DNA from: Escherichia coli
GTDB taxonomy: Bacteria > Pseudomonadota > Gammaproteobacteria > Enterobacterales > Enterobacteriaceae
Length of the DNA: 64,000 nt
Assembly (NCBI RefSeq): GCF_009931435.1
Contig: NZ_CP043414.1
Reading direction: 5' to 3' (one strand)
Position numbers and translations under genes: made by a program
The notes under the pieces: model-generated
What the model was told of the DNA's origin: nothing
The model's input: only the letters and a program-made list of their open reading frames with translations
The model's database searches: none
Shown here: piece by piece, positions 49,624 to 50,637 of the stretch
Position numbering within the stretch: the first letter of the stretch is position 1
How the letters are laid out: each line of letters starts with the position of its first letter

Positions 49624-49738
49624 CTGTTTTCTCTGCTGGCGCAGCAGGTGCCAGTTGTTCAGGCTGGCGTGCAGATTGTAAACCAGAATGCCCGGAAAAA
49701 ACAAAACCCGCCGAAGCGGGTTTTCATTGGAAGCGCCT

Positions 49739-50233
49739 TTAGTTTTGCTGTTCTATTCTAAGCTTGATAGTTTCATACAAAACAATAGTTGCGCCTGTTT
49801 TACATAATTCCCGGCTGTCATACGCGCGAGACCAATAACACAACCAGTTCTCGAGATCTTCTCGAGTATAGGTTTTGCAGGCCAGTCCCTCTGCCATTTC
49901 CACGATTTCATCGCCTGGTGCTGTTAACTCATAGCCATTCAACAACAAGAAGACGTAACCAGCCATCATAGCTGTTCGTTTGTTCGCATTAGCAAACGGA
50001 TGATTCTGAATCAGACTTTCAATCAATACCGATGCCAGTACAAACATGTCATTAGTCTGTTCATACCATCGAACCATGCTGGGACGGGCCTGAGAAGAAC
50101 TTAAGTTATCTGGACTCAGAACACCAACGGGCTCATCTGGCGTCTGTAATTCAATTAGGGAACGATTGATTTCAACAAGATCATCAACCGTAAGGTAATG
50201 CACTCCTTCAACAATCTCAGCCATAGAGCACAA
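49739..50233 (-). CDS. doc: Doc/Fic-family toxin (death-on-curing-like)
   Basis: 164 aa with HPFANANKRT, fitting the Doc motif Hx F x(D/N)(A/G)NKR. Confidence 0.65.
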   Translation of the reverse strand: MCSMAEIVEGVHYLTVDDLVEINRSLIELQTPDEPVGVLSPDNLSSSQARPSMVRWYEQTNDMFVLASVLIESLIQNHPFANANKRTAMMAGYVFLLLNGYELTAPGDEIVEMAEGLACKTYTREDLENWLCYWSRAYDSRELCKTGATIVLYETIKLRIEQQN

Positions 50234-50242
50234 TACCCATCA

Positions 50243-50422
50243 TTACACTTTTGAAAGTTCTTCCATGGCTTTCTCATAACGAGAAAAACCGAAATCAAAA
50301 GCATTTTTCACTTGTTCACGATGTGCGCAGTTTTCATCAATCGCTGGGCGAGGGACTGCCACAACGCTTTTATCGCGAGGCGGAATACTCAACCGCGTGT
50401 GTTTTTTGAGTGGGCAGCTCAT
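50243..50422 (-). CDS. Putative antitoxin partner of the Doc-family toxin
   Basis: 59 aa from ATG 50422 with AAGGA SD 9 nt upstream; ends 10 nt before the toxin start. Family not recognised. Confidence 0.45.
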   Translation of the reverse strand: MSCPLKKHTRLSIPPRDKSVVAVPRPAIDENCAHREQVKNAFDFGFSRYEKAMEELSKV

Positions 50423-50637
50423 ACTAATGAGTCCTTTTGTTTTCCGATTATTGGCAAAGCCATGCACCAAATTTGATGCAAAATAGATCTGTTTGAGATC
50501 CTTAGGATAGTCTAATGGTAGCTAAAATTACAACCTCATAATGCGACGAAAAACCCGCCGAAGCGGGTTAAGTGCGGGTGCGTTGAGGATGCCTGACACA
50601 TCAGAGGTGGCGAGGGATTTCTCCCCCGCCAGGTCTC

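Follow-up and report, generated by a model that had tools for sequence, protein, structure and literature searches.

The window analysed here, a 64,000-nucleotide stretch of an Escherichia coli genome (contig NZ_CP043414.1), contains a two-gene cassette, made up of a Doc-family toxin gene and a gene for a 59-aa protein, which lies directly downstream of a hok/sok locus in what appears to be the early-right region of a lambdoid (Qin/O157-type) prophage (Table 1). Every gene in the region lies on the minus strand, and two identical hairpin-forming repeats flank the cassette.

Table 1. Features of the Doc cassette and its surroundings, with positions in the 64-kb window.
Feature	Position	Strand	Basis
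DUF968/ydfU-like gene	48294-49343	-	ORF
Conserved 92-aa gene, left border of cargo slot	49345-49623	-	phrog_1212 (1.3e-35); 279 nt in all relatives examined
Left repeat copy, putative intrinsic terminator of the antitoxin-doc operon	49703-49724	-	Terminator scan, hairpin fold
Doc-family toxin, 161 aa	49739-50224	-	TIGR01550, Pfam Fic, phrog_577, PDB, AF2 model
Candidate antitoxin, 59 aa, unclassified family	50243-50422	-	Synteny with Doc; phrog_2208
Cassette control region	50423-50549	-	Palindrome search; promoter candidate read by eye
Right repeat copy, putative intrinsic terminator of the hok mRNA	50549-50569	-	Hairpin fold
hok/sok locus	50570-50997	-	Rfam sok RF01794; Hok family models; PGAP hokD in relatives
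hokD	50638-50793	-	ORF; PGAP name in relatives

An exact search of the 64-kb window finds the 19-mer AAACCCGCCGAAGCGGGTT twice, at 49704-49722 and 50551-50569, and finds no further copy there with up to 3 mismatches; none of 100 shuffled sequences gave two matches to the 19-mer. The original prediction had placed identical 19-bp copies at these positions, and reading the sequence extends the identity to 20 bp (49703-49722 and 50550-50569), beyond which the bases differ on both sides (C at 49702 vs A at 50549, and T at 49723 vs A at 50570). On the minus strand the left copy reads AAAACCCGCUUCGGCGGGUUUUGUUUUUU and the right copy reads AACCCGCUUCGGCGGGUUUUUCG. The hairpin has a CCCGC/GCGGG stem with a UUCG tetraloop, accompanied by an A-run and a T-run, and on the minus strand both copies fold with a G+C stem of 7-9 bp, a UUCG loop and U-runs; the terminator scan finds the left copy. 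The left copy, 14 nt past the doc stop codon, has a 9-bp stem and a UUCG loop followed by UUUUGUUUUUU, and the right copy, 68 nt past the hok stop codon, has a 7-bp stem, a UUCG loop and only 5 U, and a strict terminator scan missed it. Both copies present the hallmark of Rho-independent termination, which is a G+C stem-loop followed by a U-run 3' of a gene on the transcribed strand, and both look like minus-strand intrinsic terminators, in agreement with the earlier description of each as a GC-rich, terminator-capable hairpin with a minus-strand U-run.

The toxin matches TIGR01550 with E = 1.5e-37 (128.5 bits vs a cut-off of 38.65), Pfam Fic PF02661 at 1.1e-11, phrog_577 ('Doc-like toxin') at 1.8e-51 and, in the PDB, 9vzc at 4.7e-13 and P1 Doc 3k33 at 5.6e-5. 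The catalytic motif HxFx(D/N)(A/G)NKR is present as HPFANANKR, which aligns to HIFNDANKR of P1 Doc (3k33) and HCFYNANKR of 9vzc and is invariant in 19 relatives; together with the TIGR01550 match, this motif bears out the proposal of a Doc-like toxin with the sequence HPFANANKRT. A Doc gene is thus found where it was predicted, and the length of 164 aa given for it counts from an upstream TTG; 161 aa is used here. An AF2 model has the all-helical Fic/Doc fold, with P1 Doc chains as its best PDB matches (probability 1.00, target TM 0.72, for a model of moderate confidence built as a fusion construct, mean pLDDT 68.8). By homology with P1 Doc, the toxin would block translation by phosphorylating EF-Tu. 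Residues ~130-161 (window 49739-49840) form a C-terminal extension of about 30 residues that is absent from P1 Doc and holds a conserved WLCxWSRxYDSRxLC motif, and model confidence is low at its very end. RefSeq already annotates the toxin and labels its partner 'hypothetical protein'; a literature search with these protein accessions found no paper.

The gene for the 59-aa partner lies upstream of the toxin gene, as had been claimed, and is co-oriented with it across a gap of 18 nt. A homologue occurs directly upstream of Doc in 80 of 80 IMG/VR loci, in which Doc identity ranges from 67 to 100% and the partner is always 59 aa long. A small, co-oriented, adjacent gene whose pairing with the toxin is conserved across relatives is the arrangement of type II toxin-antitoxin (TA) systems. 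The protein has a proline-rich, extended N-terminus and a C-terminal helix ending EELSKV, and its final 25 residues are nearly invariant. It belongs to phrog_2208, a function-unknown family. A profile search of 1.84 billion representatives recovered only 38 clusters of small relatives, nearly all of 47-66 aa, and gave no link to a known domain; two of the three distant family members examined precede a Fic-domain protein of about 163 aa. One distant member (L214, 1036-1366), which is 52 aa long and ends YELSKV, is followed by a gene fragment that is not Doc-like, so the 59-aa family may pair with other toxins too.

Membership of Phd/YefM, or of another named antitoxin family, was considered for the partner and rejected: the N-terminal PF02604 domain is absent, AF2 predicts no folded N-terminal domain, and searches of Pfam (even at E<=10), NCBIfam and PADLOC returned no match to the protein, PADLOC defence-system annotation likewise giving none to Doc. 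No DNA-binding domain was recognised in it. Modelled alone, the partner has an unstructured proline-rich N-terminus (pLDDT 63-73) and one helix at residues 34-57; fused to Doc, it is predicted with pLDDT 80-92 and the helix is kinked (34-48 and 50-59). The higher confidence in the fusion fits binding of the partner to Doc and is suggestive at most; the fusion model was rejected as proof of binding. Synteny and the outcome of the Phd/YefM comparison make the partner a probable antitoxin that is not a Phd/YefM member, and its assignment as the antitoxin of the prophage Doc toxin draws on that synteny together with the soft AF2 signal. By analogy with P1 Doc, the conserved C-terminal helix would mask the Doc active site. 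Compared with the type II TA system Phd-Doc of phage P1 (PDB 3K33, 3DD7, 3KH2), the cassette shares the Fic/Doc fold and the HxFx(D/N)(A/G)NKR motif, a small (here candidate) antitoxin gene immediately upstream, carriage by a temperate phage, and a C-terminal helix in the partner, for which the model with Doc predicts a kink. Unlike P1 Phd-Doc, it has a partner without a Phd/YefM domain and apparently, from the models, without a folded N-terminal DNA-binding domain, its 161-aa Doc carries the conserved extension, and it resides in an integrated lambdoid prophage, not a plasmid prophage.

The control region of the cassette holds two palindromes 5' of the antitoxin start (50463-50480 and 50481-50494) and a sigma-70-like promoter candidate, TTGTAA-18-TATCCT, at about 50527-50498, which is weak (8 of 12 matches) and falls under the scanner threshold. 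A consensus promoter scan of the cassette passes nothing, which counts against the presumed independent transcription of the two genes. Among relatives, at least two unrelated versions of the control region occur, each joined directly after the hok U-run, and relatives with antitoxins still 90% identical can have an entirely exchanged region. The cassette has a GC content of 42.6%, vs 53.3% and 51.5% in its flanks. In some lineages with the second type of control region (L143, L160 and L162 of IMG/VR), the hok terminator lies about 110 nt 5' of where the antitoxin gene begins and is degraded to AACCTACTTCGGCGGTT or AACCTGCTTCGGCGGTT, which no longer pair well; with a doc terminator further downstream, transcription running on from hok into the Doc operon would seem to be tolerated.

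On the right, the neighbour of the cassette is a full hok/sok locus. Rfam sok (RF01794) matches 50788-50962 with 105 bits vs a gathering score of 59, the Hok family models match the peptide below their curated cut-offs, PGAP calls the orthologue hokD, and the promoter scan marks a promoter-like site within the locus; a sok and mRNA-leader match and a Hok peptide, the two marks of the hok/sok family, are both found. The hok mRNA is about 400 nt long, and the right copy of the repeat sits where the hok terminator is expected. In the Rfam scan sok is the sole true match, and the matches to rsmX, RydC, the Leu leader and isrK are sub-threshold and driven by the terminator itself; the repeat was accordingly rejected as a known repeat element or RNA family. 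The match to isrK, a Salmonella prophage sRNA, spans 50548-50629 on the minus strand, at the hok mRNA 3' end and terminator (26 bits vs 50), and is probably driven by the terminator alone. A recent survey of Hok does not discuss this neighbourhood. On the left, the label of 'rem-position gene' previously given to the neighbour is mistaken: rem can occupy the very slot that here holds the Doc cassette, and the left neighbour is the conserved 92-aa gene. The TTG start of a mechanically listed 119-aa ORF (window 49624-49704) falls within the left hairpin; since the RefSeq annotation of relatives gives the gene just 92 aa, it and the terminator probably do not overlap.

Prophages that lack the cassette had been put forward as the place to look for a single repeat copy, and exactly one hairpin is what their empty sites contain. 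In O157:H7 strain 17B6-2, a single hairpin stands between hok and the 92-aa gene; its hok-side flank is that of the right copy in the window and its other flank is the distal side of the left copy. Among 5426 complete E. coli genomes, 2137 have the one-hairpin empty site (89-nt junction query, coverage >=80%) and 124 have the Doc cassette; a 1.7-kb query was covered to at least 80% in only 37 genomes, while the flanks themselves are very common. The cassette is a clean 847-bp insertion/deletion polymorphism with its joint inside the shared 20 bp. The two genes are present or absent together, and this much of the original view that the pair moved in as a unit holds; its other half, which takes the identical copies as a sign of the insertion (a duplication made on entry), is unsupported.

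The slot is occupied by other DNA as well. K-12-type prophages (L005) have rem in it, strain GPEC1201 (L003, 1905-2600) has a 130-aa phrog_16082 gene, and strain 98232 (L004) has about 400 bp of AT-rich DNA; strain 120899 (L007) carries an extra 86-aa gene beside the Doc cassette. The slot 3' of hok/sok thus has the appearance, in comparisons of its sequence among strains, of a general, hypervariable cargo site. The phrog_16082 protein weakly resembles the Cor superinfection-exclusion protein. Collections of phages and plasmids yielded only two distant phage matches to the cassette and, besides these, one mislabelled Proteus chromosome; they gave no plasmid copies. Just upstream of hok/sok, two adjacent ORFs of 500 and 332 aa form a 38.8% GC island (51641-54146, minus strand); they have no NCBIfam match and match restriction-enzyme models of PADLOC weakly (1.9e-4 and 6.2e-5), and relatives have an ATP-dependent nuclease, an alpha/beta hydrolase, QueH or a DUF5677 protein at this position, a pattern that points to another variable slot, for cargo or defence genes.

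A single copy with chimeric flanks at the empty site is also what a target-site duplication would leave, and the repeats could be the footprint of a transposition-like or staggered-cut entry at the hok terminator that duplicated a 19-20 bp target; the exactness of the two copies and the recurrence of the 847-bp spacing in 22 IMG/VR loci would suit such an event. The cassette, however, has no transposase, integrase or terminal inverted repeats, and neither of its only two ORFs is a recombinase. The distribution of the hairpin also speaks against a footprint. The hok-proximal copy occurs with the hok locus in thousands of genomes and is constant at the hok 3' end, whether rem, other cargo or nothing follows. 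The left hairpin, in E. coli-type cassettes, stays after doc and precedes at least six unrelated distal sequences, and the hairpin core also follows doc in hok-less Salmonella-type phages, including SW-37 (72% nucleotide identity). After doc, a compensatory stem variant, CCCAC/GTGGG, is found in L198, L207, L209 and Proteus mirabilis (L132), and the loop of the doc terminator occurs as UACG, UCCG, UUUG and UCAG. The stem is thus kept by compensatory substitution (a G-C pair changed to A-T) while the loops vary freely, as would be expected if the RNA stem is functional. Because the left copy is conserved with doc across contexts, hok-less ones included, it is best read as the ancestral terminator of the Doc operon and not as an insertion-made duplicate of the hok terminator. 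A hairpin that accompanies doc without hok, and that has compensatory variants, predates any insertion beside hok, and the same word bounds unrelated genes elsewhere. The transposon or target-site-duplication reading was rejected for want of a recombinase and for the left hairpin being kept with doc where hok is absent; the hok-less contexts largely refute it, and we regard it as highly improbable.

Two further observations concern the Salmonella-type cassettes and phages. Within 0-70 nt past the doc stop, the Salmonella-type cassettes L181-L197 have two tandem terminators, first ATCCGCTGAGAGGCGGTTTTT and after it the AACCCGCTTCGGCGGGTTTTTTT hairpin. In Salmonella phage SW-37 (CP051275; L131, 2343-3141), frameshifts split both doc and the 59-aa gene, and the split genes are either pseudogenes or sequencing errors.

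The shared word itself is common. The exact 19-mer is present in at least 120 IMG/VR stretches, and among the matches listed its 125 occurrences comprise about 43 at hok 3' ends, 4 at doc 3' ends and about 75 with unrelated flanks. One 51.9-kb IMG/VR contig (L014-L017) has four exact copies with unrelated flanks, and in another contig (L040, 1819-2577) an unrelated 216-aa gene is enclosed by two copies spaced 740 bp apart. The consensus terminator that Rfam gives for the Pseudomonas rsmX family has the same sequence, and two stem-swapped control words have 28 and 9 occurrences, far above chance for a 19-mer. The shared 19-mer therefore comes across as a generic terminator word that is widely reused in enterobacterial phages, and identical terminators on neighbouring units are, since the word is generic, not by themselves evidence of movement. 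The flanking copies consequently lose the role of insertion evidence that was first assigned to them: the left one appears to be the cassette's terminator and the right one that of hok, and the 19-mer recurs at unrelated sites.

These observations are likely explained by a two-gene Doc TA moron in a variable slot, with the repeats as the terminators of two successive transcription units. On the minus strand, the moron would consist of its control region, the 59-aa antitoxin candidate, the 161-aa Doc toxin and its own Rho-independent terminator; the right copy of the repeat would end the hok mRNA and the left copy the antitoxin-doc mRNA. Since each copy would belong to its own unit, neither would be a target-site duplication, and since both units end in the same 20 bp, genomes would be joined at that sequence. 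The filled arrangement would result if a phage with the cassette and one with a plain hok terminator crossed over in the hairpin; the empty site would result if the two copies recombined with each other or replication slipped from one to the other. Crossover or slippage inside the shared terminator is likely the simplest account of the joints, whether as a deletion point or as an exchange point, and we can only infer that short homology, rather than selection for intact units, directs them. Efficient pairing is published to need at least 23-27 bp with Red-beta and 31-34 bp with RecA (PMC3945230); since 20 bp lies just below both, exchange guided by homology within the hairpin should be a rare event. 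Illegitimate recombination followed by selection for intact transcription units could just as well have made the joints and is a serious alternative.

In its full form, that alternative gives the hairpins no role in mobility: both units happen to end in a favoured terminator, placement is illegitimate, and the survivors are those in which both units are intact. The recurrence of the word, up to the Pseudomonas rsmX consensus, the similar recurrence of the control hairpin words far above chance, the position of 20 bp below the pairing minima, and other slot cargo (rem and that of strain 98232) that is not bracketed by two copies all fit such a coincidence. It accounts less well for a filled/empty joint that falls exactly inside the shared 20 bp, where a random joint would rarely fall; at empty sites the flank with the 92-aa gene is joined to the hairpin of hok, at filled sites to that of doc. 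In strain GPEC1201, unrelated cargo in the slot likewise has the hairpin at one end and, at the end towards hok, a degenerate copy of it, AAAAAACGCCGAAGCGGGTT. On balance we consider coincidence possible but doubtful.

The polymorphism might also record loss and not gain, with the filled state ancestral in this prophage lineage and the empty sites made by repeated precise deletion between the repeats. Two direct repeats at a distance of 847 bp are of the kind on which slippage and recombination are well known to act, and the empty allele is exactly the predicted product of deletion. Empty sites, however, outnumber filled ones by about 17 to 1 in the genome counts given above and have diverse flanks, the GC content of the cassette is below that of its surroundings, and several unrelated alternatives occupy the slot, all of which fits acquisition; loss as the general history is thus unlikely, and some individual empty sites may nevertheless be deletions. 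A bolder reading, and quite an improbable one, makes the shared hairpin a cassette boundary for the exchange of cargo 3' of hok and, separately, makes the 59-aa protein a new minimal class of Doc antitoxin without a DNA-binding domain. Single-strand-annealing recombinases or template-switching at the hairpin may then swap or excise whole promoter-gene-terminator units, and the 20-bp word may loosely resemble the attC sites that bound integron cassettes. If this were true, the TA pair would penalise its own repeat-mediated deletion.

The moron reading can be set against systems that are already known. K-12 Qin has, upstream of its hokD, the type II TA system relBE. The relBE-hokD-rem region of K-12 Qin resembles the window in hokD with the same terminator hairpin, the 92-aa gene, DUF968 (ydfU), RusA and Q, and differs from it in that the K-12-type slot 3' of hokD holds rem with a different terminator, where the window has the Doc pair; the hok of the window, unlike that of K-12 Qin, has a full sok region. 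Morons of lambdoid phages are reportedly the subject of Juhala et al. from 2000. Under the definition of a moron taken from PMC3594210, the cassette has its own putative terminator, is absent from otherwise syntenic relatives and differs in composition. Like the lambdoid morons of that source, it is an extra unit between conserved genes with its own terminator, deviant GC and patchy presence; unlike them, it has a TA pair as cargo, ends in the same terminator sequence as the unit upstream of it, and has an only weakly predicted promoter. The pile-up of mosaic joints at a short shared boundary sequence is like that described for mosaic phages in the debate on boundary sequences (PMC3945230). 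The boundary here differs in that it is, to all appearance, a working terminator hairpin, whose 20 bp fall short of the pairing minima, and its joints come from sequence comparison.

The toxin is a Doc-family member and the architecture that of a classical lambdoid moron, and in these respects the locus is an ordinary feature. Two small points stand out: the candidate, unclassified minimal antitoxin family and a clean mosaic joint inside a shared terminator. Identical repeats around a cassette need not be an insertion scar, which is a caution for genome scans in general. Whether the mosaic joints of phages form at random or where short sequences are shared is a long-standing question; the locus offers a clean natural case of it, and thousands of genomes can be used to test joints within terminators. 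For annotation, the 59-aa family of phrog_2208 can now be marked as probably supplying the antitoxin to a prophage Doc toxin.
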